DNA from: a virus
Lineage: Duplodnaviria > Caudoviricetes
Direction: 5' to 3' (one strand)
Virus record (IMG/VR): IMGVR_UViG_3300033388_005412
Location: 1 to 64,000 of that record
Length of the DNA stretch: 64,000 nt
Made by a program: the position numbers and the translations under genes. The notes beneath the pieces were generated by a model that saw only the letters and a program-made list of their open reading frames with translations, had not been told where the DNA came from and ran no database searches. Every line of letters starts with the position of its first letter. The first letter of the stretch is position 1. Shown here in pieces: positions 18,747-64,000 of the stretch.

Positions 18747-19067
18747 ATGTCTAGAGATATACTTGAAAAAGAAATTGCTAAGAAATTTGGCGGACAGGTG
18801 ACCGTTGCTTCAGGTGCAATTCATAGCGACGGTGACGTCAGGATAGATGGATTTCTTGTTGAGGCAAAAAGGCATTTGACAAAGAAAAGTATATCCGTCA
18901 CTAATACAGTGTGGAAGCAGATAAGAAATCAGGCATTGAAACGTGGCCGGCGCCCATTGGTTATTTTTAAGAATAGTGAATTATCGGTTGCTATCTTAGA
19001 TTTAGAGGATTTTAAAGAAATGTACGAGGAGAATAAGGAAAATAAAAATGAAACAAATTCTATATAA
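18747..19067 (+). CDS. Hjc-type Holliday junction resolvase / PD-(D/E)XK endonuclease
   Basis: EKEIAKKFGG..ASGA..SDGDV..FLVEAK...KSISV. Confidence 0.7.
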   Translation: MSRDILEKEIAKKFGGQVTVASGAIHSDGDVRIDGFLVEAKRHLTKKSISVTNTVWKQIRNQALKRGRRPLVIFKNSELSVAILDLEDFKEMYEENKENKNETNSI

Positions 19068-20097: not shown

Positions 20098-21016
20098 AAA
20101 ACCTGTTGTTCAAAAAGGGTTACCTTCTTTGGAAAAAATTTCTCTTGGAATGATTTCCTTGGATAAATTAACAGGTGGTGGTTTTCCTAAAAGCAGATTT
20201 TCAATGTTGTTTGGTGATAAGTCTACTTGTAAAACAAGTTTATGTAAACGATTAGCTGGACAAATTATTAAAGAAGGTGGTAAAGTCGTTGTTGTAGATG
20301 CGGAACATAGTTGGGATTCAAAACATGCAAAAACACTTGGTCTTGATACTGATAAATTGATGGTTAATCAACCGGACACATTAGAAGAGGGAATAACAAT
20401 AATTCAAAAATTCGCACCGCTTGTAGATCTTATCATTTACGATTCTATCGTCAGCGTAGCACCTGAAGCCGAGATAGCAAGAGATATGGAACAGGAAACA
20501 AGAGCATTGATTCCACGGAAATTGTCTCAGTTTTTCAGAATAACAACGCCTGTCGTTGGAAAAGGTAAAGCTGCTGTTATTTTGGTTAATCAGGTTAGGG
20601 TGGATTTAAATAAATATGGCATGGCCGGATATCCTGGGGGCCGAGCACTTTCACACCATACTTCTTTCATTATGCAACTATGGAGAGGCAGTAAAAAAGA
20701 CTGCCCTACAAAGAAAATTAATGGGAAAGATATACCTATAGGCTTCAGAGTATTCGCCAAAGCCACTAAAACAAAAATATCCGATACGGAAGGACAGACT
20801 GTGAGTTTTAACTATTTCTACAAGGGAGAGCATTTTAAACCATTAGATGATCTTTTCCAGATGGCCGAATTGTTTAAAGTTATTGAAAAATCCGGAGCGT
20901 GGTATAATTATGGAGAAGATAAGTTTCAAGGACAGCAGGGTTTTATTAATTTTATGAAAGAAAATCCATCTGCTGTAAAGGAAATAAAGAAAGCTGTGAT
21001 AGAGGCAAAACTTTAA
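20036..21016 (+). CDS. recA: RecA-like recombinase
   Basis: SLDKLTGGGFPK, P-loop GDKSTCKTS, VDAEH, NQPDTLEE, YDSI, LVNQVR, PGGRALSH, IEKSGAWY. Confidence 0.92.
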   Translation: MKKEKDLKLQEAINQLAKQYKKPVVQKGLPSLEKISLGMISLDKLTGGGFPKSRFSMLFGDKSTCKTSLCKRLAGQIIKEGGKVVVVDAEHSWDSKHAKTLGLDTDKLMVNQPDTLEEGITIIQKFAPLVDLIIYDSIVSVAPEAEIARDMEQETRALIPRKLSQFFRITTPVVGKGKAAVILVNQVRVDLNKYGMAGYPGGRALSHHTSFIMQLWRGSKKDCPTKKINGKDIPIGFRVFAKATKTKISDTEGQTVSFNYFYKGEHFKPLDDLFQMAELFKVIEKSGAWYNYGEDKFQGQQGFINFMKENPSAVKEIKKAVIEAKL

Positions 21017-35463: not shown

Positions 35464-38400
35464 TTATATATTATTAATTTTATCCCTTCGTTTGGAATGT
35501 ATTTGATGAAATTTTTCCATATCACCTAAAATAAAACATTCCCATATATCAGCAACAATATCCCAACTCCACCCAGCCACAATTATTTTTCTATTCGATA
35601 ATCCCGCTTGTTTCATTCTTTCCGGATCTTTTATCATTTTTATTATACCATCAGCTAATGAGTCAACATCTCTATTAACAATGCAATTTAAATAACTTAT
35701 GTTTATTTCTGAAGTTACACCTACTTCTGTTGAAACAAATGGAATACCACATGCACATGTTTCCACCAACGGTGTCGGTAGCCCCTCATTCGATGACGCA
35801 CAAATGTATAAATCAATATCAGAATAAAATTCCGGCATTTTTTCGTGGGGAATTAAGTTTTCATATCCATGTGTTTTAAAAATAACATTCGGATATTGTT
35901 TCTTTACAATATCTATTGCCGGAATGATAATATCATAATATCCTTTTAGTTTTTTATTTTTATTACCCACCCAACCTATAGTAATTGCATTATTTTCCAA
36001 TATATTATGAAATTTAAACATATTCGTATCAATTCCAGATGGTAAATAATACGCATCTATACTATGTTTATCTTTCCATGCTTGTATTATATTTTCAGAT
36101 ATTGTGCTATGTCTTAAACCATTTTGTATAAATTGAATTTCATTTTTTATCCATATGTTTCCGCTAATTTCGCTATTCTCAAGACCTATGCTATAAGGAT
36201 TATGATGAACCATTGTCACATTTGGTCTATTTAATAATGCGGGTGCAAAATTTGCACGGGACATACCAAATGAGGCCATAGCAAATATCATATCATATTT
36301 TTCTAGATTTAAAGTTAAAAATTCTCTCATGGAATATGCTGTGTAATTAACATCTGATTTTATATTATTTATGAATCCCTTTGCCTGGGAATGAATTGCC
36401 CAATCGGGGGAGTCATAAATCAAAGCAATATTTAAATTTCCCTTTCCTTTTTTTTGAATATAGTTTTTTTTACTTTCTAATATATTATTTAGAAATTCTT
36501 TTGACCTTATTTGCGGTGCAGCTGATTCATGATCCTGATGAATAAATTCAGATACTTTATCCCTTATTGTTTTTATGTTTTCAGCGCCGCATTTCCAAAA
36601 CATAAAATTATCTTCACCGCCCCATTGCTGAAAACTTTCCGGCCATTTTCCTATTTTTTCAAAGTCTGTTTTGTGTATTCCGCAATTACCATATCCGCCT
36701 TTGCGCCATCCTAGTTTATCAGCACACTGTAAAGTTTTCTCATTTTTACAAATAGGAAAACAAGCTTGATTTTCTTTAATATTTGATGACATAATATCTG
36801 TAAAATTTTCAGGAAAAAGCATGTCAGCATCAGTAAAAAATAGCCGACTGTATTTAGCAACTGCCGCACCGGCATTTAACCCACAGGATCGGTTAAATTC
36901 TTTTTCATTTTGTACAATTCTTATAGGAAATTTAAATTTTTGGCGTAAATCATTGAAATCAATATCTGTTGAGTGGAAATCCGATATAATTATTTCGAAG
37001 TTTTTATAATTTTGATTTGATATTGTTTCAAACATACGATGTAACATAGAAGCTCTATTTTTTAGTGTTAATATAATAGACACATTTTCTTTATTATCCA
37101 TGTGATGTTTCCTCTTTACAATGTTAACAGCGTCCGGCCAACTTATGACTGAACCACCTGTTATGCTGTTATCGCGAACATGCGCCATGAATAATGGTTC
37201 CGGAATATGTTTTCCAATCTTATTATTTTCTAACATAGTCAGCCAGAGATCCCAGTCCTGGGCACGTTGTATATAAGGGTCAAGCCCTGGAAAATCTTTT
37301 TTTCTGATAAGTGACATCATGCTTATGTAATTACTTTTTTTTAAATAACTGGCGTTAAAATTTATTGTTTTAAACGTATCATTTATTATTCCCTTTCTTT
37401 TATAATCAGAATACGCATAACTTATTTTTGGGTTATCTTTAAGAACACCTGCCATCTTTTCGAGCATCTGCGGATCCCATTCAGAATCAGCATCTGAGAA
37501 TAATAAATAATCACCTTTTGATTTTTCATATCCTTTTTCTCTCGCTATATTAGCATTTGTGTGTTTATTGCAATTTATTACTTTAAATTTATACCCATCT
37601 GCATATAATTCTTTCAATATATTTTCCGTATCATCTGTTGATCCGTCATTAACTATAATTATTTCAAAATGTTTGTATGTCTGATTATATATACTGCTTA
37701 TTAAATCCGGAAAATATTTACCACAGTTATATGTTGGTATGATAATACTAATTAACGGAGTGTCTGACGAAGTGTCTGACGAACCATTGTTAATTAGTAA
37801 ATTATTAGTATTTATTAGAACACTCTTATCCGGTTTATTAGATAATTTATCACACCACTTTGATTTAAACATATTCCGATCATCAATTAATCTCTCATCT
37901 CCAGATCTGCTTCTTGTTGCACATGTTATGTGTTTTGCCACAGCCTTATGCGCATATATTGTCTTATATCCAACATCTTCAGCCTTGAGGGAATAATCTA
38001 CATCACTTGATTCCATTTTATATTGTATTGAAAAACACCCAAGCTTATCAAATAAATCATGCCGCGTCATAAAACACGCGCCTGTGACAGCCTGAACTTC
38101 TTTTGTCTCATTGGCCTGAGGGTGGCCCCCTGGTTTACCAATATAAGAATGTTTACAATTGCATTGCTTATCTATTTCAATGCCGGCATGCTGAATTGTG
38201 CCATCTTGAAATAACAACTTGGCCCCGACAACACCAACTTTCGGTTTTGCCAGTTCTTCTACCATATTATTTAACCAGTCTATTTCCACAAAAGCATCAT
38301 TATTCAAAAAACAAAGTATATTATTTTTAGAATACTTTGCTCCGAGATTACAGAATCTAGAAAAATTAAATTCTTCCGGATGATTATAAACTCTGATGGC

Positions 38401-40452
38401 CGGATTTTGTTTTATTTGTTTTAAATAATTAACTGTATTCACATCCGTACTGCCATTATCAATTATGACTATCTCATAAGGATATTTCGTGTTTTTTCTT
38501 ATATGATTGATACACGTTGATAATAAATCATATCTATCTTTATTTAAAATAATAATACTAACTGGTTCCTTTTTTGCCACGTTTGTTGTTTTAAATAATT
38601 TTTCATCAGGAATCATTTTGTTTATAACATCAACCCATTTCGGGCCGATATTCTCCCATGAATACTTCTTAACATCTTTTCTACCGCTCTCTCCCAAACT
38701 TTTAATCAGTTTTCTATCATTATATAGTATATCAAATGAATCAGTAATTTCAGATATTGATGGTATGGCTCGGCGAATATTTGTCCCGGGTTCAACATAA
38801 AAACCAACCGGTCTAATAAACATTGTTCCCTTTTGAAAATTTTTTAATTCAGAATAATCTGTTATCACCGCTGGAGTCCCTGTAGAAAGGGAATCGCAGT
38901 TATGGGCGTATGCCACACCATTCACTATGTATGTATTATCATCTTCAACTTCTAAATTATAAACATATCCCTTGTACATTTTTCCCACTATTTTAGTGAT
39001 CGGCGTTTTAACATATGATCTGAATTCATTATCAACAACTCCTGTTTTGCTTCTTGAATTTGTTCTTCTTTTTGTCGTGTCCAATGCTATATTCTGATAG
39101 ATATTTAATTTAGTTTTACTTAATTTATTATGAATTCCCATTGATAAAAGACAATCGCGCATCCTGGCTAAGATTGGAAAATCCGTACAACGATGTGATA
39201 ATTTCGGGAAATGTGTGTCCAGTCGTAATTGTTTTCTTACTATTTTCTTTTCAACATCGGATGTTTCGATTATCGGATACCATAATAAATCACCGCGTTT
39301 CAAATGTTTTGCTGTTTTCCATGCCTTTGCTGTCCAAAACCTATGATTAGGTGTAACTTGTATAGGTGTCGACGTCTCGGTATATATATTGTAAATTTTA
39401 CCAGTATAATGTCTTTTAAAAACTTTAAGAACTTTTTTTAATTTACCTCTATGTGTATAAACATAATTTCCCGGCCGGATCCACTGAATTGGCTTATGTT
39501 CATATTTGGTTTTCACATAAGTATTTCTTAAAAAGCACACCGTACCGCCGAAGCCTTCCCCGCTTGACGGCAGCGTTGTTATGTCACACGCGTTATACAG
39601 TCGATTTAGTTTTTCAATTGGAACACCGTGCCCCAGTTGTAACGATGGATTTAATATAACTTTAGATTTGACATTATGATCACCTACCAATGAATGTAGG
39701 TCCCACCCGGCCGGATCATTTATTGCAGTATGCAAATATAAATATGTATTTGGTTTATTCCATTTTGCAAACGCCTCTATAGCATATGGTAGACCCTTCC
39801 TGGGATTTTGTCGGCCAAAATAACCAATAATAAATGAGTCTATATTAACATTCCATATTTGGGTTTTAATGCTTTTTTTATTTTTGAGTGGAACAAATTT
39901 ATTGATCTCACAACCGTCTGATATAATTGTCGTGAATTTCTTCATTATTTTATCCTTCTCTTTTGTTGATAGTTTTGATAATGTTGTTTGAAATCGTTCT
40001 TTTATAACCCGAAAAGCATACGGTCCCGCCGCAATTAATTTATCGGCCGATGCCAGTATTTGCGGACATGATATTATTTGATGTTGATTTTTAACAATAT
40101 TCGGTAATGGCTCGCCTTCTATATGAACATATAAAATTGTTGGAACTTCAGTATTCAGATATGGTTTGGCCGCCCAAATATCAGTTATTATAATTATCAA
40201 ATCAGGTGAAAATTCATTAACTATTTTATCATATTGTTTTTTCTGAAAATGTCGCGGATTGCCGCCTAAATTAACAGGCCATGATATTGTTTTATTATTA
40301 TAATTGTCGTTTTCATTATTTCTTGGATCAAATAATCCAATATGTTCAACAGCAAATCCATTATTATGTAAATAATTACCCAACCCACGACCCAACTGGC
40401 CAAAACCCGTATCGAGAAACGGGCTATCTGAAATTAATAATATCTTCTTCAA
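35464..40452 (-). CDS. 1662-aa five-domain glycosyltransferase (GT4[intein]-GT2-GT2-GT2/GT7C-GT4)
   Basis: GRQNPRKG..PSSGEGFG; SIIILN..DNGSTD..FLNND; SIIIPTYN..NDGSTD..FSDAD; FTDAD..WGGED; ASSNEGLPTPLVE..CGIPFVST. Confidence 0.9.
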   Translation of the reverse strand: MKKILLISDSPFLDTGFGQLGRGLGNYLHNNGFAVEHIGLFDPRNNENDNYNNKTISWPVNLGGNPRHFQKKQYDKIVNEFSPDLIIIITDIWAAKPYLNTEVPTILYVHIEGEPLPNIVKNQHQIISCPQILASADKLIAAGPYAFRVIKERFQTTLSKLSTKEKDKIMKKFTTIISDGCEINKFVPLKNKKSIKTQIWNVNIDSFIIGYFGRQNPRKGLPYAIEAFAKWNKPNTYLYLHTAINDPAGWDLHSLVGDHNVKSKVILNPSLQLGHGVPIEKLNRLYNACDITTLPSSGEGFGGTVCFLRNTYVKTKYEHKPIQWIRPGNYVYTHRGKLKKVLKVFKRHYTGKIYNIYTETSTPIQVTPNHRFWTAKAWKTAKHLKRGDLLWYPIIETSDVEKKIVRKQLRLDTHFPKLSHRCTDFPILARMRDCLLSMGIHNKLSKTKLNIYQNIALDTTKRRTNSRSKTGVVDNEFRSYVKTPITKIVGKMYKGYVYNLEVEDDNTYIVNGVAYAHNCDSLSTGTPAVITDYSELKNFQKGTMFIRPVGFYVEPGTNIRRAIPSISEITDSFDILYNDRKLIKSLGESGRKDVKKYSWENIGPKWVDVINKMIPDEKLFKTTNVAKKEPVSIIILNKDRYDLLSTCINHIRKNTKYPYEIVIIDNGSTDVNTVNYLKQIKQNPAIRVYNHPEEFNFSRFCNLGAKYSKNNILCFLNNDAFVEIDWLNNMVEELAKPKVGVVGAKLLFQDGTIQHAGIEIDKQCNCKHSYIGKPGGHPQANETKEVQAVTGACFMTRHDLFDKLGCFSIQYKMESSDVDYSLKAEDVGYKTIYAHKAVAKHITCATRSRSGDERLIDDRNMFKSKWCDKLSNKPDKSVLINTNNLLINNGSSDTSSDTPLISIIIPTYNCGKYFPDLISSIYNQTYKHFEIIIVNDGSTDDTENILKELYADGYKFKVINCNKHTNANIAREKGYEKSKGDYLLFSDADSEWDPQMLEKMAGVLKDNPKISYAYSDYKRKGIINDTFKTINFNASYLKKSNYISMMSLIRKKDFPGLDPYIQRAQDWDLWLTMLENNKIGKHIPEPLFMAHVRDNSITGGSVISWPDAVNIVKRKHHMDNKENVSIILTLKNRASMLHRMFETISNQNYKNFEIIISDFHSTDIDFNDLRQKFKFPIRIVQNEKEFNRSCGLNAGAAVAKYSRLFFTDADMLFPENFTDIMSSNIKENQACFPICKNEKTLQCADKLGWRKGGYGNCGIHKTDFEKIGKWPESFQQWGGEDNFMFWKCGAENIKTIRDKVSEFIHQDHESAAPQIRSKEFLNNILESKKNYIQKKGKGNLNIALIYDSPDWAIHSQAKGFINNIKSDVNYTAYSMREFLTLNLEKYDMIFAMASFGMSRANFAPALLNRPNVTMVHHNPYSIGLENSEISGNIWIKNEIQFIQNGLRHSTISENIIQAWKDKHSIDAYYLPSGIDTNMFKFHNILENNAITIGWVGNKNKKLKGYYDIIIPAIDIVKKQYPNVIFKTHGYENLIPHEKMPEFYSDIDLYICASSNEGLPTPLVETCACGIPFVSTEVGVTSEINISYLNCIVNRDVDSLADGIIKMIKDPERMKQAGLSNRKIIVAGWSWDIVADIWECFILGDMEKFHQIHSKRRDKINNI
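38899..39537 (-). mobile_element. mini-intein (213 aa) in the first GT4 domain
   Basis: Starts CFLRNT, block B VTPNHRF, block F VYNLEVEDDNTY, ends AHN followed by Cys+1; excision restores EGFGGTV-CDSLSTGTPAV. Confidence 0.92.
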
Positions 40453-52282: not shown

Positions 52283-52997
52283 AAAACCTCCTAATTAATT
52301 TTTTTGCTTTATTTAAATTTCCCATATATTCAACACCATCTATGACTCTAGTTGTCGCCCATAATGGTTGCAAATTCTTTAATGCCCAACATTCTTTGAA
52401 TCCAATATCGTTATATGATTCAAATTTAAAAACAACTTTAGGAACAATATGATCAATATGCCATTCGCCATAATTATCCCAAGTCATTTCTTGTGTGAAT
52501 AACATCTCCAAATGCTTTTTTAAATCATTTAATGTGTAATTAATAAGGTCTTCCCAATGCTTTCCTGCTTTATTTTTTTTAAGTGCGCACCAAAACATTT
52601 TTCCCATACTATTATTTAATCTACCATCAATACTAGACAATCTTTTCTGATAGTACTTTCTTGAAATTTCGCGGTACTTTCCAGGATTGGATTTACGCCA
52701 TTTTTTATTACATTTATTAACTTTTTCTGAATTTTCTATACGATATTTTTTCATACGCAATTTATTTTTATTTACATGTTTTTCGTTATATTTTTTGTTT
52801 AATAATTTAATCTTCTCCGGATTATTTTTTCTATATAAAACAGCTTTTCTTTTTTCAAGTTCTTTATTTTTTATATAATATTTTCTTCTATATTTTCTGC
52901 AACATTCCACACATCTAATAAGATGACCATTTTTATATTCTCGTTCTTTATGACAAACATGGCAAATTTTTGTTTTTTTCATAAAATATTTACTCAA
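52269..52997 (-). mobile_element. free-standing HNH-type homing endonuclease
   Basis: CHVC..CVEC plus K/Y-rich helical repeats; MTWDNYGEWHIDHIVP...CWALKNLQPLW. Confidence 0.85.
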
Positions 52998-54084
52998 TTT
53001 TGTCTAACGTAATTCCGGTAATAACCGGTGTCACATTTTCAATCTTTTCCAATTTAACTTCAATTTTCCAATCTTTAGTGACATCTAATAATAAACTCTG
53101 TTCCAATGGATATGTGCTCGGTACATCCGCTGTTTCGCCGCTTGTATCATATATTATTATACTGTCATCCTGCGTTTTAATTTTAATAACAAACGGCCGA
53201 TTTTCAGCCAGGTCAATCGGCACGATATAAGGATCATCTAATAATATTGAACTTAAACCAACAGCAGTTCCCATATCCAAATCATAACTAAAAGTTCCCT
53301 CCATAGCATAATCGCATTTGAAAATGCCGATATCTCTAATTGAAAAAATATATTTACCATCTTCAAGTTTTCCCTGTAATTTTACAATGATCTCATTAGT
53401 ATAATTTTCTATTTTTCTATGTATTTTAACCGGCCATGCTGTATCAAATAACTCAATTGGACCTGTCACACCATTATAATATATTTCTCTTATCTTTGTT
53501 CCCATTAAAGGAAACACTGTTATATATGAAGCATTGTCTGATTCAGACACAGATGTTGTTTTAACTTTCAAATAAATAAAGCCAGCGTCTGTTTCGGCGG
53601 GATCCAGTTCTGTACACCATATATCATTATTTCCATTTATAACATGCCGCAAATCAGTGAGATCGGCCCAGGGTCCGGTTGCTGCCGTACTTTCTTGTAT
53701 CTCACATGATGCTATCGCCTGGCTTTCGCCATATTCATTTTCAACTAATGGTATTTTACTAACGATATCCTCTTCAGCTAAACTTAATTGGCCATAAACT
53801 GAATCAACTTGAATATCATCTGAATAATCAGGTGCAAGATATCCGGATTTTATAATTTTACCTGCTACAGAACTCACTATATTATTAATCTCAGCTGTCA
53901 GCCAGTTAATAGTTTTCTCAGCCGCATATTTATAATCACTATGGGTTTTAGAAAGTCTTTGAAATCTTTTATATAAACTTAAAATATTTTTAAGAAAGCT
54001 ATCGGTAGTATCATTAAAAAATCGTGACGTGAATTTACTCAAATCACTTAACACATAATCTTTGATCGAAATATCTAAACTCAT
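52990..54084 (-). CDS. putative virion structural protein
   Basis: Acidic, beta-rich ORF in fibre module. Confidence 0.5.
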   Translation of the reverse strand: MSLDISIKDYVLSDLSKFTSRFFNDTTDSFLKNILSLYKRFQRLSKTHSDYKYAAEKTINWLTAEINNIVSSVAGKIIKSGYLAPDYSDDIQVDSVYGQLSLAEEDIVSKIPLVENEYGESQAIASCEIQESTAATGPWADLTDLRHVINGNNDIWCTELDPAETDAGFIYLKVKTTSVSESDNASYITVFPLMGTKIREIYYNGVTGPIELFDTAWPVKIHRKIENYTNEIIVKLQGKLEDGKYIFSIRDIGIFKCDYAMEGTFSYDLDMGTAVGLSSILLDDPYIVPIDLAENRPFVIKIKTQDDSIIIYDTSGETADVPSTYPLEQSLLLDVTKDWKIEVKLEKIENVTPVITGITLDKIE

Positions 54085-54305
54085 TATATCCTCCTATGCA
54101 CATTAAGTGCCGGTATTATAGATAATATTTCAGTTTTATATAAAAATTCAACATCTGTTTTTAAATCTTCATCAAAATCAATGAAATCCTCTCTCAAATT
54201 TTCCATATCATTCTTAAGATTGCCCCAAAACTTATTCCATATTTCATGATCCAAATTATATCTATATCTGAAATTTAATTTATAACTTTTCCATTTTTTA
54301 TTCAT
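54084..54305 (-). CDS. hypothetical protein
   Basis: AGGAG SD, ORF. Confidence 0.65.
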   Translation of the reverse strand: MNKKWKSYKLNFRYRYNLDHEIWNKFWGNLKNDMENLREDFIDFDEDLKTDVEFLYKTEILSIIPALNVHRRI

Positions 54306-54322
54306 ATATAATTCTCCTTATT

Positions 54323-54697
54323 TCAGTCACTACTGACCTCCACTTTATACCAATCTGTTGAATGTAAATAATCAATAACTTCCTGTGACATTGTATTTGC
54401 CTCAATATTATATCCAATAAATTCTACATAAGGAATATTAAAAAACCAAGTTATTTCAGTTTCGTTAAAATTTCCCTGCACTAATCGCTTGCTATCGTCA
54501 ACATTGCTTATATAATGAGTAATATCTCTCGGTTGTCCTGACGGATTTCGTCCCTGCAAACCCCTCGCAAGAATATTATCAAAAACAATTTCTCTGGAAG
54601 GGTCGGGGAGAAACGATGTATCAACGGAAAAATAGCATCTTTCATCAGCCTGAATAAAGCAAGCCACGAACAAAAATATAATTATTCTTTTTTTCAT
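54323..54697 (-). CDS. signal-peptide-bearing hypothetical protein
   Basis: MKKRIIIFLFVACFIQA-DE. Confidence 0.7.
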   Translation of the reverse strand: MKKRIIIFLFVACFIQADERCYFSVDTSFLPDPSREIVFDNILARGLQGRNPSGQPRDITHYISNVDDSKRLVQGNFNETEITWFFNIPYVEFIGYNIEANTMSQEVIDYLHSTDWYKVEVSSD

Positions 54698-55413
54698 TAT
54701 CTTACCCCCACCTGTTCTTCATATCTGTATAGTATTTCTGCGACAGACCAACTTCTTTCTGAAATTATTACCTCATCTATGGCCGTGTTTACAATTCCAG
54801 TTCCCGCACTTCTCGCACCGATTATAACATTGTCCGCTAAAAATGGTTCAATATCCCCAACAATATAGCAATTATCTTTTCGGATTCCGTCTAAATATAT
54901 TTCATAATTTGTCCCATTGTGCCTTAAAACTAAATTATGCCAATCCGCAGAAATGGATTCTGTTGAGCTACACCAACCGATTGTAGCTGCGCCATAGGCT
55001 TGTATATAAATAATTTCGTTCAGGAAGGAGCTAGTTCCCGCCCCTAACCAAAGTAACTGCTGATTTACTCCGCCTATTTGCATAATGATTTTATATGCCG
55101 ACGCAGACGTTATTGGGGTATCGGGATTTAACCATAGTGAAATTGTGCGAGCATATTTTCCCATATCTCCAACATTAACATCATCACTCCCGTCAAAAAA
55201 TAAACACTTTCCTAACCAGCTATCAATCCACAACGCACCAGTTATAGTTCCGTTATTCCCCTGCCCCGAAACATCGTAAGCGGTAGACCCAGTCCCTTTG
55301 TTAAAATGCCAAAGTCCTGCAGTGTAAGAAGTAGACCCTAACTGATAATCACCTTTCCATTCTGCAAAAGAAACCCCACAAAACAATAAAATAATCAGTA
55401 ATTTTTTCATCAA
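54697..55413 (-). CDS. LamG/concanavalin A-like domain protein with signal peptide
   Basis: MMKKLLIILLFCGVSFA-; GLWHFNKGTGSTAYDVSGQGNNGT...FDGSDD...TISLW...WHNL...IYLDG...IDEV. Confidence 0.85.
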   Translation of the reverse strand: MMKKLLIILLFCGVSFAEWKGDYQLGSTSYTAGLWHFNKGTGSTAYDVSGQGNNGTITGALWIDSWLGKCLFFDGSDDVNVGDMGKYARTISLWLNPDTPITSASAYKIIMQIGGVNQQLLWLGAGTSSFLNEIIYIQAYGAATIGWCSSTESISADWHNLVLRHNGTNYEIYLDGIRKDNCYIVGDIEPFLADNVIIGARSAGTGIVNTAIDEVIISERSWSVAEILYRYEEQVGVR

Positions 55414-58376
55414 TCTTCCTTAAAAATTGCCACGACCGAAACTCCACCTGGCGAGTCATTTTCGTCAACATCTTCAAAATCTATACCAATAGCTGTATTT
55501 TCATCGCACCTTATTCCTGTAAAAAATTTCAGATAAGTCACTCCCGCCGTAATAGACAATGTTGTTGTGCTTACTCCGTCACGCCATACCCTGATAGTAA
55601 AAGCGTCAGGTGTTGCCGATGTAATTTTAATATGAAATGCCTCAACATTTCCAGTCGCTCCGCAAACTTCAAACCAATGGCCGTTAGTGTAAAGAGTATC
55701 GCTTGAATTATAAATATTAGAAGCCCCTGTTCCACCATATAAAGCTATACGGTGATTGGATGAACCGCCTGCGCCACCACCAGTGCTATTTATTGTCACT
55801 ATTCCTCGCCCGTCTGTCGGTGTAATTGTAATATTATCTCCTGCAAGTATCTGCGAAACACCTGTTGACATTCCGGTTTCATAATCGTTTTTGTTTACAT
55901 AAGTTTCCGTTGCCGAACTCTCGTCAAGTTTATATGTTATATCTGTTATGTTAGTCAGCACCTGCACACCTGTCGTTGAAATAGCCGCCGCATTTGCGTC
56001 TATCAAATCTTTGTTCGTGCCCGTGCTTACGCCAATAGCCGTTATTTCAGTATCTGTTGTTACTATTTCGTCGGACAATGCCGCCCCTGTTGACCGCAAA
56101 GCCGTGTAAATCGTCGTCGTATCTGTTGCCACATTTTCAAAATCTACATTAGTTGCTATTATCTCCACTGATAGCGCCGCCCCGGTACTTTTTAATTCAT
56201 CGTAAATCTGCCCCGTTGTCGCTGCCGTTAAACTCAAATCCGCCGCAATTGCATAATCAGATATTGTGTATTCTTCCGCCGCCCCTGCGCCGTCAAATCC
56301 AGCAAATGTACTTGCCGTGCCTGTATGACCTGAATTTGTCCACGCCAATGTTCCTAAATCAGGGTGATTCGGCGGTGTGGATATTTTGTATGGTATAATA
56401 TATCTATTATCAATTTCTATAAAATTCGGTTCGCCTTCTTTAACTATTATTCTTGCCGCTAATATCCCAAAATTATTCACAACCGAGGGTATCGTAGCCG
56501 GGTCATCGGAGAGTTGGGCATCAATAAGTTTCAAAAATTGCTCCTGCCCATAGACTACATTTATATCGCTGTCATAATGAACATATGCGTATTGGCACAT
56601 ATAATAATTATTTGTAAGCGCAACCGTGCTACCGCTGCCATCGTCATATGCTGTGTTATCCACTTGTGTCAATGAACTTACTGAAATCCAATCGCCCGCG
56701 TCGCCCCTATACCACGCTATAAACCTCGCCGCATCCGATGTATCTTGTGTTGTTGTTTCTATGGGATTGTTTCCGTGCCAGAATTTCCCCGTCGTTGATG
56801 TTAAATACCTTTCTCCTGTTTCAGCAATCACTCCGCCGAATTCTCTCTCAAATCCTCTTACACCAACTACCCTTTTTCTTGCTCTATGCCGCCAATCATA
56901 AACGTTAAGCCCTGTGTCTATGTGGTGCATTGTGTTATCGCCGTTTTTATAAACAAGTCCTATTCCAAACTGTGTCTGTCCGTTTATTTCAGTTGTCGCC
57001 GCCGTTGTGGATATTTCTACATTTCCACCGTTGTAATCAATATAAACTTTTATAACAATGCCCGAAGCTATATCAATATCATATTTGCCGTCAAAATCAA
57101 AAGACACAAGTGTTGCCGTTGAACTCGCCGTAGTCCGTATCATTCCCGTGCCGCTTGACACTGATATTGTGCCGTCGCCGTTATCTGTAATTTGCCCACC
57201 GGTTGCTCTGCCTGCCGAGCCTGCAATATATATATAGTCTTGTGAGGTGTCGTATGTTGCGGAATTAAGGTTATTAATATAAACGTGATTTGCAGTAACA
57301 GAACTTGCCACAACACCGGTAAAATTAGAACCGTCAAAAGTTGGTGACGAACCGGATGTTACATCTTGGTTAATATAGCTGTGGTCACTGCCGTCATTTG
57401 CAATATGATCAGACAGAGCGGCAGCCGTGCTTTGCAAGGCAGTATAAATTCCACCTGTTGATATTCCAATTGCCTCTATAGCATCATCGTTCGTAGTTAT
57501 CTGTCCCTGTAATGAATCAACCTGTCCACTCAAAACAGCTGTTGAATACTCAAGCGCGGCAATTCTATCTTTATTCTCACCTGTTGATACCTGTAAATCA
57601 TATATATCAGCAGCATTTGTTCCCGTAGATACGGCTATATCATTTTCTCTCGCCACTGCTCTTGTTATTTCTGCGGATAACGCCGCAGCTGTTGAATTTA
57701 ACGCCGCATATATGGTCCCTGTGGAAACGCCCAGGGCGGCATCACCACCTATTCTATCTGATATCTCAGTATTAAGGTCAGTTCTTAATGTTGAAGTATC
57801 TATAGCAACATTTTCAAAATTAATATCTGTCGTCGCTATTTCCTCTGACAGCGTCGCCCCTGTTGACTGCAACGCCGCATAAATTGTACCAGTTGAGACT
57901 CCTAATACGCTATCGCCATTTTTTCTATTTGCGATTTCTGTTGTAAGATTATTTGCATTTGTTGTTGTATCCGTTGCAACATTATTAAAATTGGTATCGG
58001 TGTCTGCTATTTCTTCATCAAGAGCCGTCTTGATAGTACCGGTACTTGCCGCCGTTAAAGACCAACTGCTTCTAACCGCAAAATATGATTCATCATGATT
58101 ATCAAGTAAGTCAGAATCGGCCGCCTTTTCTGTTTTATATAAATATGTATCAGGTGCTGAACTTATAAACACAGGATCTGATTCTGCACCGCCGGCACCA
58201 AACTGTAAATCCACATAATCTTTATTTGCCGCCTGGCCACTTATTGTTGGTGTAGCTGTATATATTGTACCGCCCCTAAAATCCCATGAGCCAACTGGTT
58301 CGGCGTCATTTGTTTTTATATCCCATGCATATAATTGAGCCCCCAACAACAAAATTCCAAATAATATTTTTTTCAT
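55410..58376 (-). CDS. fibre/adhesin-like protein with signal peptide and ST-rich coiled-coil repeats
   Basis: MKKILFGILLLGAQLYA-W; repeated STGTIY.AL.STGA.LS.EI; ILAGDNITITP/GGAGGS segments typical of phage fibres. Confidence 0.7.
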   Translation of the reverse strand: MKKILFGILLLGAQLYAWDIKTNDAEPVGSWDFRGGTIYTATPTISGQAANKDYVDLQFGAGGAESDPVFISSAPDTYLYKTEKAADSDLLDNHDESYFAVRSSWSLTAASTGTIKTALDEEIADTDTNFNNVATDTTTNANNLTTEIANRKNGDSVLGVSTGTIYAALQSTGATLSEEIATTDINFENVAIDTSTLRTDLNTEISDRIGGDAALGVSTGTIYAALNSTAAALSAEITRAVARENDIAVSTGTNAADIYDLQVSTGENKDRIAALEYSTAVLSGQVDSLQGQITTNDDAIEAIGISTGGIYTALQSTAAALSDHIANDGSDHSYINQDVTSGSSPTFDGSNFTGVVASSVTANHVYINNLNSATYDTSQDYIYIAGSAGRATGGQITDNGDGTISVSSGTGMIRTTASSTATLVSFDFDGKYDIDIASGIVIKVYIDYNGGNVEISTTAATTEINGQTQFGIGLVYKNGDNTMHHIDTGLNVYDWRHRARKRVVGVRGFEREFGGVIAETGERYLTSTTGKFWHGNNPIETTTQDTSDAARFIAWYRGDAGDWISVSSLTQVDNTAYDDGSGSTVALTNNYYMCQYAYVHYDSDINVVYGQEQFLKLIDAQLSDDPATIPSVVNNFGILAARIIVKEGEPNFIEIDNRYIIPYKISTPPNHPDLGTLAWTNSGHTGTASTFAGFDGAGAAEEYTISDYAIAADLSLTAATTGQIYDELKSTGAALSVEIIATNVDFENVATDTTTIYTALRSTGAALSDEIVTTDTEITAIGVSTGTNKDLIDANAAAISTTGVQVLTNITDITYKLDESSATETYVNKNDYETGMSTGVSQILAGDNITITPTDGRGIVTINSTGGGAGGSSNHRIALYGGTGASNIYNSSDTLYTNGHWFEVCGATGNVEAFHIKITSATPDAFTIRVWRDGVSTTTLSITAGVTYLKFFTGIRCDENTAIGIDFEDVDENDSPGGVSVVAIFKED

Positions 58377-58386
58377 ACCATTCCTC

Positions 58387-60480
58387 CTAATTTTCATAAA
58401 TTACAACATCACCCTCATATGTTGCCACACTAATAACTGAGTTTGTATTGCCATACCGTGCTATTGTATCATCAGGATATGTTGCAATCATATTTATTAT
58501 CTGATTTATTGTAAATGTTTCTAATTTTCCACTGTTTTCTGAATATGCCGCCGATGATACAGATGATGCAAATGGTAAATTCGTTAAATTACTGCCATCA
58601 CCATAGAAATACGTCGCCGAAGCTTTTCCTACCACATAAACATTTGTATCTATATGTACACCAAAATCATCAGTCGTTATGTTTCCTGTATCCAACGCTA
58701 TTCCTGTCACCGTAATTGTATCTTTTATAATAGCGTTATCTCCGTATAAATCATCACCGTAAATATCGCCCGCCACCCTCGTCGTCGCGCCCATTGTTAT
58801 TTCAGAACCGTCATATTCTATGCTCGTCACTCCACCACCTATATGAAAATCAATACCCGCTGTATTTTCTGAATATGCCACAAAATATCCCCCGCGAGCC
58901 CCTTGGTTAATTGCATCAGGATAATTTTCACTCCCCCCGTCAAAAATTGCCGCTCCCCCTTCTGATGAAACGAAAAATTCACCATCTCCGACATCTATTG
59001 CAAGCCCCCTATTTTTTTGGTAATCGCTTGACTTTGGTTTTATCGTCGCCAAATCAGTATTTAATACTTCGTAAGAAGATAAATATGTGCTTTCTGTATA
59101 ATAATCAAAAGAACAATGACTCTTATAATTTATCCACGAAGTTCCTATTGCCATATAAGGTTGTAAGAATGTCTGCAATGTAGTTTCATATGAGCCTGTA
59201 TATATTGTTGTACGATTTTTAACAAATCTATATGTTACTGTTGTATCGTAATGTTTTAATGTTATTAGCGCGTCGTCTCCATCGTTCATAGTGAATGACA
59301 AATCAACGCTCCTCTGTGCACCTTCTGTATCTATGTAATAAAAATAAACACCAGCGCCACCAAAACGGTTAGCTTGTTGTATATAAAATCCTATCTTTGG
59401 AAAAATGTCAGGGCTATCCCTTTTCAGTCCTATAAAATACCCCCACATTATATCCCAAATCTCTCCTTCCTCGCCTATATCATTCCGTGCCGTCATATCC
59501 CATGTAGCAGTCAACACAGTTGCTGATGAGTTAAATGTTTTATTTCTTGTAAATAGCACGGCGCCATCGTTTGGAGAAGGTGGAGTTACATCTTGTTTTA
59601 TATGTAATTCTCCTGCCTCCACATAACATCCACCAGAGTCGGTAGGGTTATCTGCATATATCCAATCATTGACAATATCCGGGTAAACATCAAAATTATC
59701 CGTAAACCGTGAGTCTGCTTTATTATTATAATCTTCTTTTTCCACAAACCCGTCAATCTTAATCGTATTCGTCGTCCCCGTCGTCCAATAAGTATCCGAG
59801 GAATAATGCACCATTGAACCGTTAAACTGCGATCTACCTGTTTTACCATCAAGAACTATATTACAAGTTGCGCCGTTTGTTAATTTTATATTTGTTGAGT
59901 TCATTATTAATGAACCATTCATTTCATCGCCTTGGGTTGAAACAAAAGCATCATAATTTCTACCGTCCAATAAATCACTGTCATGTGCTTTCCACGTTGG
60001 TGTGTCTAAAAATAATTGATAATCATAACCATGTAATCCATCAAGTTTATCACTGTTATCACTATTATCACTGTTGTCACTGTTATAACTATCATATGCT
60101 TTCCATGACGATGTATCCAAATATAATTGAAAATCTGAACTATCATACCCATCCAATAGATCACTATCATACGCCTTCCATGTTGAAGTATCTAATTTTT
60201 TCTGATATATTGATTCGGCATCGTTTTTCTGCAAATATACTGCCGGGCCTGAACTTGTAAACACAGGATCACTTTCTTCCGGTGATCCAATACCGGTTAA
60301 ATTCGATCCATCGCCGTAATATGTTGTCGCCGATGAATAACCCGTAATATATGTATGGCTTGCTATTTTAATTTCCGCGCCGTCAGTTGTTTTTATACTA
60401 TTTCCTGACATTCTTAAGGTGGCGCACACAGGTGAAGTCAATGCGGCTAAAATTATAAAAATATCTCTATATTTTCTCAC
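58387..60480 (-). CDS. fibre-like protein with signal peptide
   Basis: MRKYRDIFIILAALTSPVCA-; YYGDGSNLT x2; DSDLLDG/DKLDG repeats. Confidence 0.7.
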   Translation of the reverse strand: MRKYRDIFIILAALTSPVCATLRMSGNSIKTTDGAEIKIASHTYITGYSSATTYYGDGSNLTGIGSPEESDPVFTSSGPAVYLQKNDAESIYQKKLDTSTWKAYDSDLLDGYDSSDFQLYLDTSSWKAYDSYNSDNSDNSDNSDKLDGLHGYDYQLFLDTPTWKAHDSDLLDGRNYDAFVSTQGDEMNGSLIMNSTNIKLTNGATCNIVLDGKTGRSQFNGSMVHYSSDTYWTTGTTNTIKIDGFVEKEDYNNKADSRFTDNFDVYPDIVNDWIYADNPTDSGGCYVEAGELHIKQDVTPPSPNDGAVLFTRNKTFNSSATVLTATWDMTARNDIGEEGEIWDIMWGYFIGLKRDSPDIFPKIGFYIQQANRFGGAGVYFYYIDTEGAQRSVDLSFTMNDGDDALITLKHYDTTVTYRFVKNRTTIYTGSYETTLQTFLQPYMAIGTSWINYKSHCSFDYYTESTYLSSYEVLNTDLATIKPKSSDYQKNRGLAIDVGDGEFFVSSEGGAAIFDGGSENYPDAINQGARGGYFVAYSENTAGIDFHIGGGVTSIEYDGSEITMGATTRVAGDIYGDDLYGDNAIIKDTITVTGIALDTGNITTDDFGVHIDTNVYVVGKASATYFYGDGSNLTNLPFASSVSSAAYSENSGKLETFTINQIINMIATYPDDTIARYGNTNSVISVATYEGDVVIYEN

Positions 60481-60674
60481 GGCTCAACTCCCCATTTTTC
60501 AACCCAAATACCCAATTCACGTCTTTCTACTAAAAAATTATTATCGCTCACAATTATTCTGTATGTCCCATCCTTATTTTTATTACCTATATATATAACA
60601 CCTGTTTCAATATCGCCGCCATCGCCTGAAATATGCTGCATCTTCCTGGTAAAAGGATTTAAAATCACCCTCAT
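60477..60674 (-). CDS. small fibre-associated protein
   Basis: IGNKNKDGTYRII...VERRELGIWVEK motif. Confidence 0.55.
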   Translation of the reverse strand: MRVILNPFTRKMQHISGDGGDIETGVIYIGNKNKDGTYRIIVSDNNFLVERRELGIWVEKWGVEP

Positions 60675-62500
60675 ACTAAATCTCCTGGCACAATGCTATT
60701 TTTCAACTCATAAGATCTTAAAGTCGGTGTTATGAACCCGCGATTGCCGATAAATTCGCACTCAAAGACAACCTTAATATCGGCTGTACTTGATGCTGCA
60801 TATTTAATGAATAAATCATCATCATCTTCATGTTTTGTTATGGCATATCCATCAATCCAATAAGTCCCCCTTTCTAATTCCGTGCTATGAACAACCCGCT
60901 TCAGCGGATATCTATATGCGAAAGCCATTAAATGCGTAACATCAGTTATTTCCGGCTCAGAAGGCGGTTCGCACGGCACCCATATTTCACTTTCATAGTG
61001 AAAGTATTCAATCTCAATTAAATTTGAGCCTTCCAATCCTGAAAATGTATAATTATCATCACCATTCACAACAACATTTAAAACCTCATTGTTTATTTTA
61101 CCCGAAAAATTAAGATGTCTGATTGTACATTTATAATCCTCCTGTAAATTATGAACAACTGTGATATCCTGATCAGCCTGAAGCTCAATATACATTCGCC
61201 GCTGTATCACATTTATCTTTTTCTTTAAAACAATTTCACATTTTAACTCATCCGGACCCAGGTATGTTGTCACGTCAGCGTCATCCACCTGACTTAATAC
61301 TGTAATTGGAATCTTATCGCCAATTTTAATAATTCTGACAACTTTGTTCTCCTCATCATACTTAACAAAATAATCAACATCTTTTACAAAATTTCCCTGC
61401 ATTCCTTCTATATAAACACTTTCAACACCATCTTTAACTATTTCATAATTATCCATCGTGAGGGATAAAAAATCAATTATCCCGGTCTCACCCAAAACAG
61501 TTAATTTCTCATTTTTGTATTCCCAATCATCTTCATCAACATGTTCAAATTTCTGATATCCGCTTCTGACCATTAAACTGTCTAAAACATAATTAGCATC
61601 CAACACACACGGCAGTGAAGTTGATTCTTTCCACTCAATTCCGCTCATGCCGCCTTTCGCCGTAATTAAATCATCCACTAAGCCAACCGAACCGATAGGT
61701 ATTCGATCGCCCGGTACGCCATCTTTGATAATTCTGATATATGAATTCAATTTAGAACCATTTGGTACACAAATATCTCTTGTTAAACTTAATTTATATA
61801 AATTATCAATATCAAACTCTTCACTTATAAATGTTCCTCGTGTTTTATACCGTGCCAAACACGCGTCGATGTAATTAATTGAAACTAAAGACGCGATACC
61901 TGTTATTTTTATCTCAACAGCCTTTCTCGGCCAGAAATTCCAAACATGCTGCTGGCCGGTTCTCTCGCCGAGGTTCTCAAATTCATTATTTGACGCATTC
62001 TTAACACTTAATGTCAGAGCAATATCATTATTTGTTCTGATAAAAATTTTATTAACTAATTCACGTTTCTCAAAACTCAATAAAAACTCAAAAGGTGTTT
62101 CAGTATCTGTCTGGTATGCCCAGAAACCCTCGTTATCTTCAAAAATTTTCTTAAAATCAGTACCTGGGACAGGACGACCGGAAATCATCGACATCGGATA
62201 CATAGCTTTTTTATAATAATCCGGGTTAAATAAAACTCTTTTAGATCTGAATTTCAAAGCATAACCGTCTTTATCATAAACAAGATTATCCTCGCTTTTA
62301 ACTAAATTAAGATCATGAAATGAATCACCATATTCAACCGGCTGTTTTTTCAAATTTATAAATTCATAATACGATGCCAAAATTTTCCTGCGCTGACGTA
62401 ATATCTGATCAACAGTGCTTCTATATAACTTTTCAATATATGTTTTAATATAATTAAAATTTGTATTAAGTGATTCTATAAATTTATCCTGATTATTCAT
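60671..62500 (-). CDS. putative virion structural protein
   Basis: 609 aa; N-terminal helix then beta-rich acidic domains; structural module context. Confidence 0.55.
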   Translation of the reverse strand: MNNQDKFIESLNTNFNYIKTYIEKLYRSTVDQILRQRRKILASYYEFINLKKQPVEYGDSFHDLNLVKSEDNLVYDKDGYALKFRSKRVLFNPDYYKKAMYPMSMISGRPVPGTDFKKIFEDNEGFWAYQTDTETPFEFLLSFEKRELVNKIFIRTNNDIALTLSVKNASNNEFENLGERTGQQHVWNFWPRKAVEIKITGIASLVSINYIDACLARYKTRGTFISEEFDIDNLYKLSLTRDICVPNGSKLNSYIRIIKDGVPGDRIPIGSVGLVDDLITAKGGMSGIEWKESTSLPCVLDANYVLDSLMVRSGYQKFEHVDEDDWEYKNEKLTVLGETGIIDFLSLTMDNYEIVKDGVESVYIEGMQGNFVKDVDYFVKYDEENKVVRIIKIGDKIPITVLSQVDDADVTTYLGPDELKCEIVLKKKINVIQRRMYIELQADQDITVVHNLQEDYKCTIRHLNFSGKINNEVLNVVVNGDDNYTFSGLEGSNLIEIEYFHYESEIWVPCEPPSEPEITDVTHLMAFAYRYPLKRVVHSTELERGTYWIDGYAITKHEDDDDLFIKYAASSTADIKVVFECEFIGNRGFITPTLRSYELKNSIVPGDLV

Positions 62501-62511
62501 TTATTCATCCT

Positions 62512-64000
62512 TTATTCATCCTTTGTATATGGATTTCCCGTCACAAATATCGGATAAAAATTTTTAATAACCGGCGTCTCCATATCATCTCCTTTAACCA
62601 ATATAACTTTAATTCTTATTTTTTTTGATTCAGTATCTATATATGGTGAATTTGTATTCAAATCAACTCCCGTAATAGAATTTTCTTTTCTTGTCTGAGA
62701 TATATCTGAATTTATATAAATCTTCTTAGGCAGCGGTTTAAAATTTTTAATTATATCTTCTCTATTAACAGGTATAATTCTGTGCCACACCAAACCATCA
62801 TCAACTGAAACAAAATATGATATCCCATCAACAGAATCATCGCTGTGTATTTTAACCGCGGTGCAATTATCCGGTATATCTATTTCTTTCGTAACGCCTT
62901 CCGATATATCTTCATATGTGTTATGGCCTATTTTTATGTCTGTTATGCCCATAGCATAGCGTTTTCTCTTTGACTCCCGTGATTGAACCGTTAGATACCC
63001 CCCAGTGCCCATTAAAACGTCTAAAACAGGTGTTTCGGTGTATTCAACCCCTGGAAGCCAATGGTCCATAATCCACGATGGAGCATCATTAATAACAGTC
63101 GTTATGTTTCTATTATCATCCCCGCTCATTTTCATAACTTTATCCAGGACATATGGTCCCGTTACATCAACCCAGCTTTCATTATTGGCTATCCTGAAAT
63201 AACCCAAATCATATTTCATATAATAACCGTGCTCCTGCTTAAAAGTTAAATTAATCGATTTTATTTTATCTTCTGTATTAAAAAAAGGTGACTCAAATGT
63301 AAATACTGTTTCTTTTGTTATCAATGTTTCCGGTATATCAATCGGCTTCTGCTCATATCCGTTTGACGCAACGGCTAAAACAATTTTATAATAAGTACTT
63401 GATGAGAATGAATGCGGTATTACAGTTATGGTGTTGATATCCATACCCTCAGAAAACACAAATTTCACAGTTGTCGTTAAATTTATTTCAGTATCTTTTA
63501 TCTGCTGAGAAAATACGGCGTCTTCGCGTTCCTCCTGGAGAACCACACCCTCGGCCTCCCAGAATGTGTCTTTATCATCAACAATAACGGCACCATCGTT
63601 GGCAGCCGGCCTGATTCCGTCCTCACCTGTTTCATTTCCTTCTATCCAGCGGCCATATGATTTTCCATAATAAACTGAAATATCCTTATCGCTTGAAATT
63701 GTGTTCAGAACAGGCGGCGCCTTCAATGTCGGGACAGCATCGGTATATGACTTAACACCGAGAACCGTTGTATTGAATTCGGAAATTGATGGGTTCTCTT
63801 TCAAGAACAAATCATCATACATTTTAACTTCTTCATCTGGTTTTTTGATCTGCTCAACACTGTTCCACGCGCTTAAAATTCTGGATTTTATATTTTGCTG
63901 TTCATTTTTAATTAAGTTTATATCACGCTCAATATAATCAATATATTTATTAATCACTTCGGACGACACAAAATCAGCTTTTTTAATCAGTTGAATATCC
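62512..64000 (-). CDS. putative virion structural protein (5' end beyond window)
   Basis: Frame stays open from 63969 to window edge (DIQLIKKADFVSSEV...). Confidence 0.55.
   Translation of the reverse strand, partial: DIQLIKKADFVSSEVINKYIDYIERDINLIKNEQQNIKSRILSAWNSVEQIKKPDEEVKMYDDLFLKENPSISEFNTTVLGVKSYTDAVPTLKAPPVLNTISSDKDISVYYGKSYGRWIEGNETGEDGIRPAANDGAVIVDDKDTFWEAEGVVLQEEREDAVFSQQIKDTEINLTTTVKFVFSEGMDINTITVIPHSFSSSTYYKIVLAVASNGYEQKPIDIPETLITKETVFTFESPFFNTEDKIKSINLTFKQEHGYYMKYDLGYFRIANNESWVDVTGPYVLDKVMKMSGDDNRNITTVINDAPSWIMDHWLPGVEYTETPVLDVLMGTGGYLTVQSRESKRKRYAMGITDIKIGHNTYEDISEGVTKEIDIPDNCTAVKIHSDDSVDGISYFVSVDDGLVWHRIIPVNREDIIKNFKPLPKKIYINSDISQTRKENSITGVDLNTNSPYIDTESKKIRIKVILVKGDDMETPVIKNFYPIFVTGNPYTKDE

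Follow-up and report, generated by a model that had tools for sequence, protein, structure and literature searches.

Probable Sec-type leaders on four consecutive fibre-module genes of a jumbo myovirus and a proposed extracytoplasmic route of fibre attachment

Assembly of tailed phages is, by the textbook, entirely cytoplasmic, and in T4 the attachment of fibres is the last assembly step and works in vitro. Virion proteins with signal peptides are familiar from filamentous phages (Ff), whose pIII and pVIII are assembled after membrane insertion. In the full-text literature, we found no paper on signal peptides of tailed-phage fibres as an assembly route. Here we describe four consecutive fibre-module genes of a tailed phage, each of which probably begins with a genuine export signal, as judged from sequence features. 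They occupy positions 54,323 to 60,480 (minus strand) of what we call the window, namely, the first 64 kb of IMG/VR virus record IMGVR_UViG_3300033388_005412 (Caudoviricetes), which is a complete record of 203,294 bp with direct terminal repeats.

Several published systems come close to this locus. Phages of Porphyromonas gingivalis have predicted Sec leaders adapted to the host by the Q-rule (Matrishin et al. 2023, PMC10367356), that is, by Gln at +1, which marks signal peptidase I substrates of Bacteroidetes (PMC10367356); the authors name capsid proteins and spanins, not tail fibres, and the leaders are read as those of envelope modifiers. Huge phages encode sortase substrates and outer-membrane proteins (bioRxiv 10.64898/2026.10.24.761521), and target proteins of phage diversity-generating retroelements are stated in print to be without signal peptides. 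In Bdellovibrio bacteriovorus, the MAT fibres are phage-tail-fibre-like trimers, 13 of 21 with an S74 chaperone-protease domain and all with a signal peptide (Caulton et al. 2024, PMC10769870), which shows that phage-type fibres can fold after Sec export. An earlier note on this DNA, made from the letters and their open reading frames (ORFs), had set out from the premise that tailed-phage fibres lack signal peptides. The premise is too absolute, as counter-examples are public, among them gp091-gp094 of Cellulophaga phage phi10:1. The tail end of this phage includes five genes in a row, gp091-gp095 (GenBank KC821618 41847-48878, locus L022:11848-18879), that encode signal peptides, each with Gln at +1. 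GenBank annotates gp091-gp094 as structural from tandem mass spectrometry (MS/MS) proteomics of virions and gp095 as pectate lyase; signal-bearing tail-end proteins can therefore be virion parts. No published discussion of the phi10:1 leaders was found in the literature.

The four leaders and their genomic setting

The four genes and their predicted leaders are the following (aa, amino acids; SD, Shine-Dalgarno; arrows, predicted cleavage sites).

58387..60480, minus strand: fibre protein 1, 697 aa, GTG start, leader MRKYRDIFIILAALTSPVCA; ORF with SD site; homologues P0010-P0013 and a 520-aa protein of contig L003 all have a leader
60421..60480, minus strand: leader of fibre 1, residues 1-20; n-region MRKYRD, h-region of 13 residues, VCA↓T
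55410..58376, minus strand: fibre protein 2, 988 aa from the SD-supported ATG, leader MKKILFGILLLGAQLYA; the ORF is open to 58397 (995 aa)
58326..58376, minus strand: leader of fibre 2, residues 1-17; n-region MKK, h-region of 10 residues, LYA↓W
54697..55410, minus strand: LamG/ConA-like protein, 237 aa, leader MKKLLIILLFCGVSFA; Laminin_G_3 match; orthologues with leader
55363..55410, minus strand: leader of the LamG protein, residues 1-16; n-region MKK, h-region of 12 residues, SFA↓E
54323..54697, minus strand: small accessory protein, 124 aa, leader MKKRIIIFLFVACFIQA; distant paralogue of a 122-aa protein (genome 78932-79300)
54647..54697, minus strand: leader of the 124-aa protein, residues 1-17; n-region MKKR, h-region of 11 residues, IQA↓D

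Leader calls rest on rule-based features and on conservation. By these, the arrangement described in the earlier note, four consecutive minus-strand genes with a basic n-region, a hydrophobic h-region and a small-residue cleavage site, is borne out. The n-regions are basic and comprise 3-6 residues, and the hydrophobic cores of 10-13 residues, with a mean Kyte-Doolittle hydropathy of 2.4-3.5, are too short for a stable membrane anchor. The sites conform to the AXA rule (small neutral residues at -3/-1), with Ala at -1 in all four leaders, and leaders of nearly all homologues end in Ala or Gly. Other types of export signal fit less well. The lipobox [LVI][ASTVI][GAS]C is absent from three of the four leaders (LLFC, no Cys and SPVC), the 124-aa protein having a loose FVAC, and the twin-arginine (Tat) motif S/T-R-R-x-F-L-K was not found, an RR pair occurring in none of the four. 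A signal-arrest-release (SAR) domain, which is a weakly hydrophobic helix made largely of Gly, Ala and Ser and has no cleavage site, was considered and rejected: the cores abound in Ile, Leu and Phe, their hydropathy reaches 3.5, and AXA-type sites come after them.

A strong SD sequence lies 5-8 nt before each of the four starts (GGTGGGGG, AAGGAAG, AGGAGG and GGGGAG), and none of the four genes has an SD-preceded alternative start downstream of its hydrophobic segment; true starts downstream of these segments were among the findings that the earlier note had named as fatal to its claim. For fibre 2 (988 aa), translation most likely begins at the ATG at 58376, which AGGAGG precedes by 6 nt; an independent gene call in a protein collection (P0001) also begins there, with MKKILFG. 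The ORF of the LamG gene runs over 54697-55413 from a TTG, and its most likely start is the SD-supported ATG at 55410, giving 237 aa.

Leaders of this kind are rare in the rest of the genome. A rule-based scan of the whole 203-kb genome flagged 19 of 322 ORFs, and seven of these are clean leaders on real genes, namely, the four window genes, 79310-80860 (516 aa), 78932-79300 (122 aa) and a spanin-like gene, 72994-73521. Fibre-module genes thus account for six of the seven, and a run of at least four with seven positives placed randomly among 322 genes has P = 2.5e-5. All non-lysis signal-bearing proteins of the phage belong to fibre cassettes, and its head, sheath, tube and baseplate proteins are leaderless. 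When the same heuristic was applied to Bacillus phage 0305phi8-36, none of the annotated structural genes within its first 100 kb showed a leader. That the leaders are an artefact of wrong starts or chance hydrophobic N-termini is therefore highly improbable, and this explanation is largely refuted: although one ORF is extendable upstream (995 vs 988 aa) and one start is GTG, it has against it the SD sites before the leaders and their absence downstream, the agreement of gene call P0001, the conservation of leaders in orthologues from other samples and the clustering just described.

The phage is an uncultured, contractile-tailed jumbo myovirus. Its genome, with a guanine-plus-cytosine (GC) content of ~33%, carries genes for RecA, a primase-helicase and a DNA polymerase of family B, as well as for three giant proteins and Baseplate J, and its minus-strand structural operon, which extends from ~125 kb down to 52 kb, includes portal, major capsid protein and tail sheath. 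Judged by its portal, the phage is closest among cultured phages to Bacillus phage 0305phi8-36 (34% identity), Moorella phage MTATph1 and Acinetobacter phage ME3. The four leader genes form the downstream end of this late operon, 3' of baseplate-side structural genes, and their stops and starts overlap within it. The genes on both sides are leaderless.

62512..64000, minus strand: virion structural protein, 538 aa, leaderless, extending past the window end; phrog_21108 'virion structural protein', 8.4e-10; baseplate-side module
60477..62500, minus strand: two leaderless upstream genes, 65 aa and 609 aa, same operon, overlapping or abutting the fibre genes; no family match
52990..54305, minus strand: two leaderless downstream genes, 73 aa and 364 aa; module end before an HNH-like gene

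The GC content of the fibre cassette (window 54000-60000) is 37-43% vs ~33% for the genome, and related cassettes are found in contigs of 40-48% GC; this offset would fit a module imported from other phages. Elsewhere in the window, a LAGLIDADG homing-endonuclease gene lies directly upstream of the phage RecA gene and overlaps it (19048-21016).

The mature proteins, the second cassette and the relatives

The mature parts of the four proteins are, by repeats and predicted folds, phage-fibre modules with carbohydrate-binding folds. The domains mapped in the two long fibres are the following.

59071..59733, minus strand: ConA-like lectin/glucanase beta-sandwich of fibre 1, residues ~250-470; AlphaFold2, pLDDT 60-80
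56337..57314, minus strand: central fibre domain of fibre 2, residues ~355-680; found in 3,164 representative proteins at E<=1e-3 and in 698 at 1e-30

The 697-aa protein contains GDGSNLT twice, together with D(S/K)(D/L)LDG repeats, and its core is conserved (alignment A6). In the AlphaFold2 model of fibre 1, only the lectin domain is folded with any confidence, and confidence there is middling. The fold of this domain nevertheless matches lectins, GH16/PL7 enzymes and phage carbohydrate-binding modules at Z 12-14; by VIA-align, Z is 14.0 for peanut lectin (1ciw), 13.8 for CBM2 of the phage J-1 Dit (5ly8) and 12.8 for the receptor-binding domain of TM4 gp23 (9n6a). The 237-aa protein belongs to Pfam family PF13385, Laminin_G_3 (1.1e-9, 39.1 bits vs a cut-off of 27.6). 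The phage-fibre motifs that the earlier note had recognised in the mature parts (GDGSNLT, DKLDG and LamG) are thus confirmed by the repeats and the PF13385 match.

The 988-aa protein is made up of a leader, an N-terminal module, shafts of STGT-type repeats, the widespread central domain and a C-terminal domain. Its central domain matches leaderless proteins annotated as tail fibres in Stenotrophomonas phage DLP_6 and Podoviridae sp. MW202484, and also a leaderless virion protein of a Rhodobacteraceae phage. PHROGs and Pfam returned nothing informative for the 124-, 988- and 697-aa proteins, and PDB sequence searches with both long fibres gave chance-level matches only. For the 124-aa protein, the structural model is unusable (pLDDT 34). 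Two candidate assignments of this protein were set aside: a match to the C-terminus of the crAss muzzle (E 0.04) failed the cut-off and was not used, and an Inhibitor_I9/propeptide-like fold (Atlas score 0.83) was too weak to use.

The genomic position of the proteins is that of tail fibres, since their genes lie in the minus-strand late operon and a 516-aa paralogue follows Baseplate_J, both within the tail/baseplate module. This paralogue belongs to a second fibre cassette.

Genome 79310-80860 (cassette 78932-80860 = locus L004:14932-16860): second fibre, 516 aa, with leader, located after Baseplate J and a 95-aa gene

The Baseplate J protein ahead of it is a member of Baseplate_J, PF04865 (3e-20). 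By the established gene order of P2, we take the slot of the 516-aa gene to be that of the P2 fibre gene H and the 122-aa gene to correspond to chaperone G. The 516-aa and 988-aa fibres have a block of 36 identical residues in common, suggesting recent recombination between the two fibre genes. The 124-aa protein, the 122-aa protein and a 134-aa protein of contig L007 all combine a leader with a C-terminal Y-x-V-E/D-I/V-S-S, and by these marks the 122-aa protein is a distant paralogue of the 124-aa one. Structure prediction of Baseplate J with the 95-aa protein and three mature N-termini of the 516-aa fibre, run without controls, gave a score of 0.00.

A lysis cassette is located inside the structural operon (genome 72305-74831, locus L004:8305-10831). 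Its products are a metallophosphatase, a DUF5675 protein of 161 aa, a holin-like membrane protein of 75 aa and a protein of 175 aa. The last of these has a leader at its N-terminus, a membrane segment at its C-terminus and a coiled coil, and it matches Rz-like spanins weakly. Its …FGISAKYEK… stretch is kept in podophages of much higher GC, a conservation that hints at hosts common to these podophages and the jumbo phage.

Leaders are retained in relatives from other samples. The orthologue P0002 of the 988-aa fibre shows 41% identity by BLASTP over 88% of the query and 51% in the stretches matched by HMMER; the two leaders diverge after MKKIL, and the next ~40 residues are alike. In contig L003, which comes from another metagenome, the gene order 520-925-LamG is kept and all three genes have leaders, which differ in sequence from those of the window, the mature N-termini being conserved. 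Contig L007 represents a relative of the jumbo phage, with which it shares the flanking genes and the lysis cassette; here the triad of fibre, LamG and small protein, all with leaders, lies at another genome position, and the cassette therefore moves as a unit. In both contigs, a LamG orthologue with a signal follows the fibre gene. Single-protein scans of IMG/VR with the 988-aa protein, the 697-aa protein and Baseplate J gave no close relatives, and an alignment query yielded one locus, L013.

The strong homologues of the 697-aa protein have a leader in four of four cases, and one of them, P0011, carries the Peptidase_S74 intramolecular chaperone that is typical of fibres and spikes. The four are located in contigs of uncultured SU10-like podophages (L016 and L017, and also L002 and L013), where nearly every gene between the capsid and lysis genes has a leader, including that of a spanin-like protein. 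Even full-length paralogues of the SU10 head-to-tail adaptor (PF24175) bear leaders, with 57 and 65 bits vs a cut-off of 27 and with the match starting right after the leader; they are encoded at L016:6065-6787 and L017:6244-6945, and L016 has a leaderless copy as well. Between the fibre and lysis genes of two of these contigs (L002:12226-12576 and L016:13563-13913) lies a gene for a 116-aa HNH-domain protein with a leader (…SIAARA↓SQW). Export of an HNH nuclease would be out of the ordinary; the HNH-like gene of the jumbo phage (window 52269-52997) is leaderless.

A census of the 146 best representatives sharing the central domain of fibre 2 found leaders in 22 (~15%). All three census contexts that were looked up are phage tail modules, and at one census locus a leaderless adaptor is followed by a run of five or six signal-bearing genes. 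In contig L018, Gln follows a small residue at +1 in all three leaders. Taken with the same residue in phi10:1, this indicates that leaders are tuned to the host export machinery.

A proposed export route and its rivals

We propose that the cassette encodes distal host-recognition gear, comprising, besides two long fibres of modular build, one LamG-type lectin-like protein and one small accessory protein. Each would be synthesised as a precursor whose Sec/signal-peptidase-I leader can be cleaved. Host Sec would carry the precursor over the inner membrane of a host that is probably diderm and outside the Bacteroidota, and the leader would be cut after an x-x-Ala site. The fibres would then fold and trimerise in the periplasm and meet the leaderless baseplate only once holin, endolysin and spanin break the envelope. 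We consider it quite possible, though short of probable, that the fibre proteins follow this course of Sec export, periplasmic folding and joining to the baseplate at lysis, and hold with similar reserve that they are also virion parts that join after export. The earlier note had offered three options, exported adhesins displayed on or released from the infected cell, fibres added outside the cytoplasm and recently captured host surface genes. The second fits best, given the slot of the 516-aa gene, the S74 domain of P0011 and the MS/MS data on phi10:1 virions, and the third found no support.

Several observations weigh against export as a step of virion assembly. We found no reason for periplasmic folding in cysteines, glycosylation motifs or a phage-encoded DsbA or signal peptidase; cysteine in fact makes up 0.67% of the signal-bearing proteins vs 1.42% of the rest of the proteome. 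Leaderless receptor-binding candidates exist, among them a 522-aa protein that has an F5/8 type C domain, and the signal-bearing set therefore need not be the only adsorption gear. The leader-bearing adaptor paralogues of the podophages would be hard to square with cytoplasmic head completion unless the outer tail is preassembled outside. Finally, the phi10:1 system is analogous, not homologous, and its MS/MS annotation is silent on leader removal.

Two other readings of the leaders have to be weighed against the proposed route. The proteins could be exported without ever entering a virion, as fibre-derived lectins in the periplasm or on the surface of the infected cell that serve in receptor masking, superinfection exclusion or protection of progeny from debris, or as adhesins or matrix binders. 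Genuine-looking leaders and carbohydrate-binding folds in the mature parts suit such a role, the leaderless baseplate proteins with binding domains could be the real receptor binders, and the precedents in print are envelope modifiers (PMC10367356; bioRxiv 10.64898/2026.10.24.761521). We regard this reading as rather unlikely, because it sits poorly with a signal-bearing 516-aa fibre in the canonical slot after Baseplate J, with genes placed within the late structural operon with overlapping stops and starts, and with the S74 of P0011, a hallmark of fibres and spikes. Moreover, in the fetched stretches of the SU10-like relatives, all the fibre-like genes that were seen bear leaders, as do adaptor paralogues, and the analogous phi10:1 proteins were detected in purified virions.

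Alternatively, the N-termini may not be used for export at all: the fibres would be assembled in the cytoplasm, with the leader as an assembly or membrane element, removed by a phage protease or kept in the virion for insertion into the host membrane. Conventional tail assembly is cytoplasmic, the leader-bearing adaptor paralogues of relatives are easier to place there, and a rationale specific to the periplasm was not found; furthermore, Matrishin et al. suggest that prohead protease removes the 'signal peptides' of capsid proteins (PMC10367356). A basic n-region followed by a core of 10-13 residues would, however, be recognised by the signal recognition particle (SRP) and Sec, and would be selected against in a cytoplasmic protein. 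Signal peptidase I and glutaminyl cyclase of the host read the conserved small residue at -1 and, in phages of Bacteroidota, the Gln at +1; a membrane-insertion helix would need neither. Leaders also occur on proteins without any assembly role in common, namely, a lectin, an HNH protein, small proteins and spanin-like proteins. Cytoplasmic assembly with a leader not used for export is a distinctly unlikely account.

As to origin, capture of host surface genes was not supported, all fetched homologue contexts being phage contigs. Two scans of 185,579 species genomes agree with this: the first gave no match, and the second led to a single phage contig, L016/L023. The link to a glycan island, which the earlier note had drawn, fared no better, as no flippase, oligosaccharyltransferase, signal peptidase or DsbA turned up in what was scanned. 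Specifically, Pfam scans of the large ORFs of the island detected no flippase or oligosaccharyltransferase family, the phage encodes neither an S26 signal peptidase nor DsbA, and the signal-bearing proteins are not enriched in the N-sequon, the Bacteroidetes O-glycosylation motif or cysteine. At window 35464-40452 lies a gene for a 1,662-aa protein that combines an intein (PF14890, 5e-14) with several glycosyltransferase domains of the GT2 and GT1/GT4 types. Its neighbours encode a GT10 fucosyltransferase-like protein, methyltransferases and a radical SAM-SPASM protein; neither a flippase nor a membrane transferase was seen in the vicinity.

The lack of Gln at +1 in the window leaders and the strong SD sites argue against a Bacteroidota host. 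A diderm host is suggested by the shortness of the leaders (16-20 residues) and by the spanin-like gene; a search with the spanin-like protein for host inference returned six matches. The near-complete podophage contigs L002 and L016/L023 are deposited inside metagenome-assembled genomes of a Candidatus Omnitrophica bacterium (GCA_013791745.1) and a Candidatus Methanoperedens sp. (GCA_964431955.1). This binning is taken as unreliable because the contigs encode peptidoglycan peptidases, and the archaeal assignment, at least, looks like a binning error.

Comparison with known systems

Among ordinary tailed-phage fibres, those of DLP_6 and MW202484 share the central domain with the 988-aa protein at 22-28% identity (E down to 1e-15) and differ from it in having no hydrophobic N-terminus, that is, in being of the ordinary cytoplasmic type. 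True leader-bearing homologues of the 697- and 988-aa fibres are found in the SU10-like (Kuravirus-type) podophages (L016, L017, L019, L002 and L013), which also have lysis-gene relatives in common with the jumbo phage. Unlike it, they are short-tailed, with genomes of 31-42 kb and a GC content of 38-48%, and have leaders on most outer-tail genes. To our knowledge, no leaders have been reported for cultured SU10.

The phage phi10:1 resembles the window in having a run of tail-end genes each with a canonical signal peptide, and differs in being a siphovirus of a Bacteroidota host whose leaders obey the Q-rule, which those of the window do not. No BLASTP match below E 0.02 was found between its proteins and those of the window; the leader trait of the two is analogous and probably arose more than once. 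The MAT fibres are likewise phage-type fibres with a signal peptide that work outside the cytoplasm, but they are encoded on the chromosome of a predatory bacterium and act on its own surface or vesicles, with no virus particle; PDB sequence searches revealed no homology of the window proteins to them. The Ff phages are still further removed, being non-tailed and extruded without lysis, with coat proteins that stay membrane-anchored until assembly.

The distribution of leaders raises a wider possibility, about which we are more doubtful than about the jumbo phage itself, that many tailed phages (the jumbo myovirus, SU10-like podophages, the Cellulophaga siphovirus and others) build particle parts extracytoplasmically. 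Export by Sec, trimming, folding in the periplasm and joining to DNA-filled particles only at lysis would be the course taken by fibres and, in certain phages, by the outer tail as a whole. If true, this would amount to an unrecognised extracytoplasmic branch of tailed-phage assembly, in which the infectivity of a burst would hinge on the Sec and signal-peptidase capacity of the host, and receptor-binding proteins would meet periplasmic quality control, possibly hidden from cytoplasmic sensors. Annotation pipelines that count the presence of a signal peptide against a role in the virion would then mislabel receptor-binding proteins. Leaders bear marks of the host phylum (the Q-rule or its absence, and length) and could thus aid host prediction for uncultured phages, and phi10:1 is a cultured system in which the export question becomes directly testable. 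Compared with these systems, the window represents, at the level of sequence, a well-supported instance in a jumbo myovirus: its parts, tail fibres and Sec leaders, are both known, and the mechanism that would join them is a proposal.

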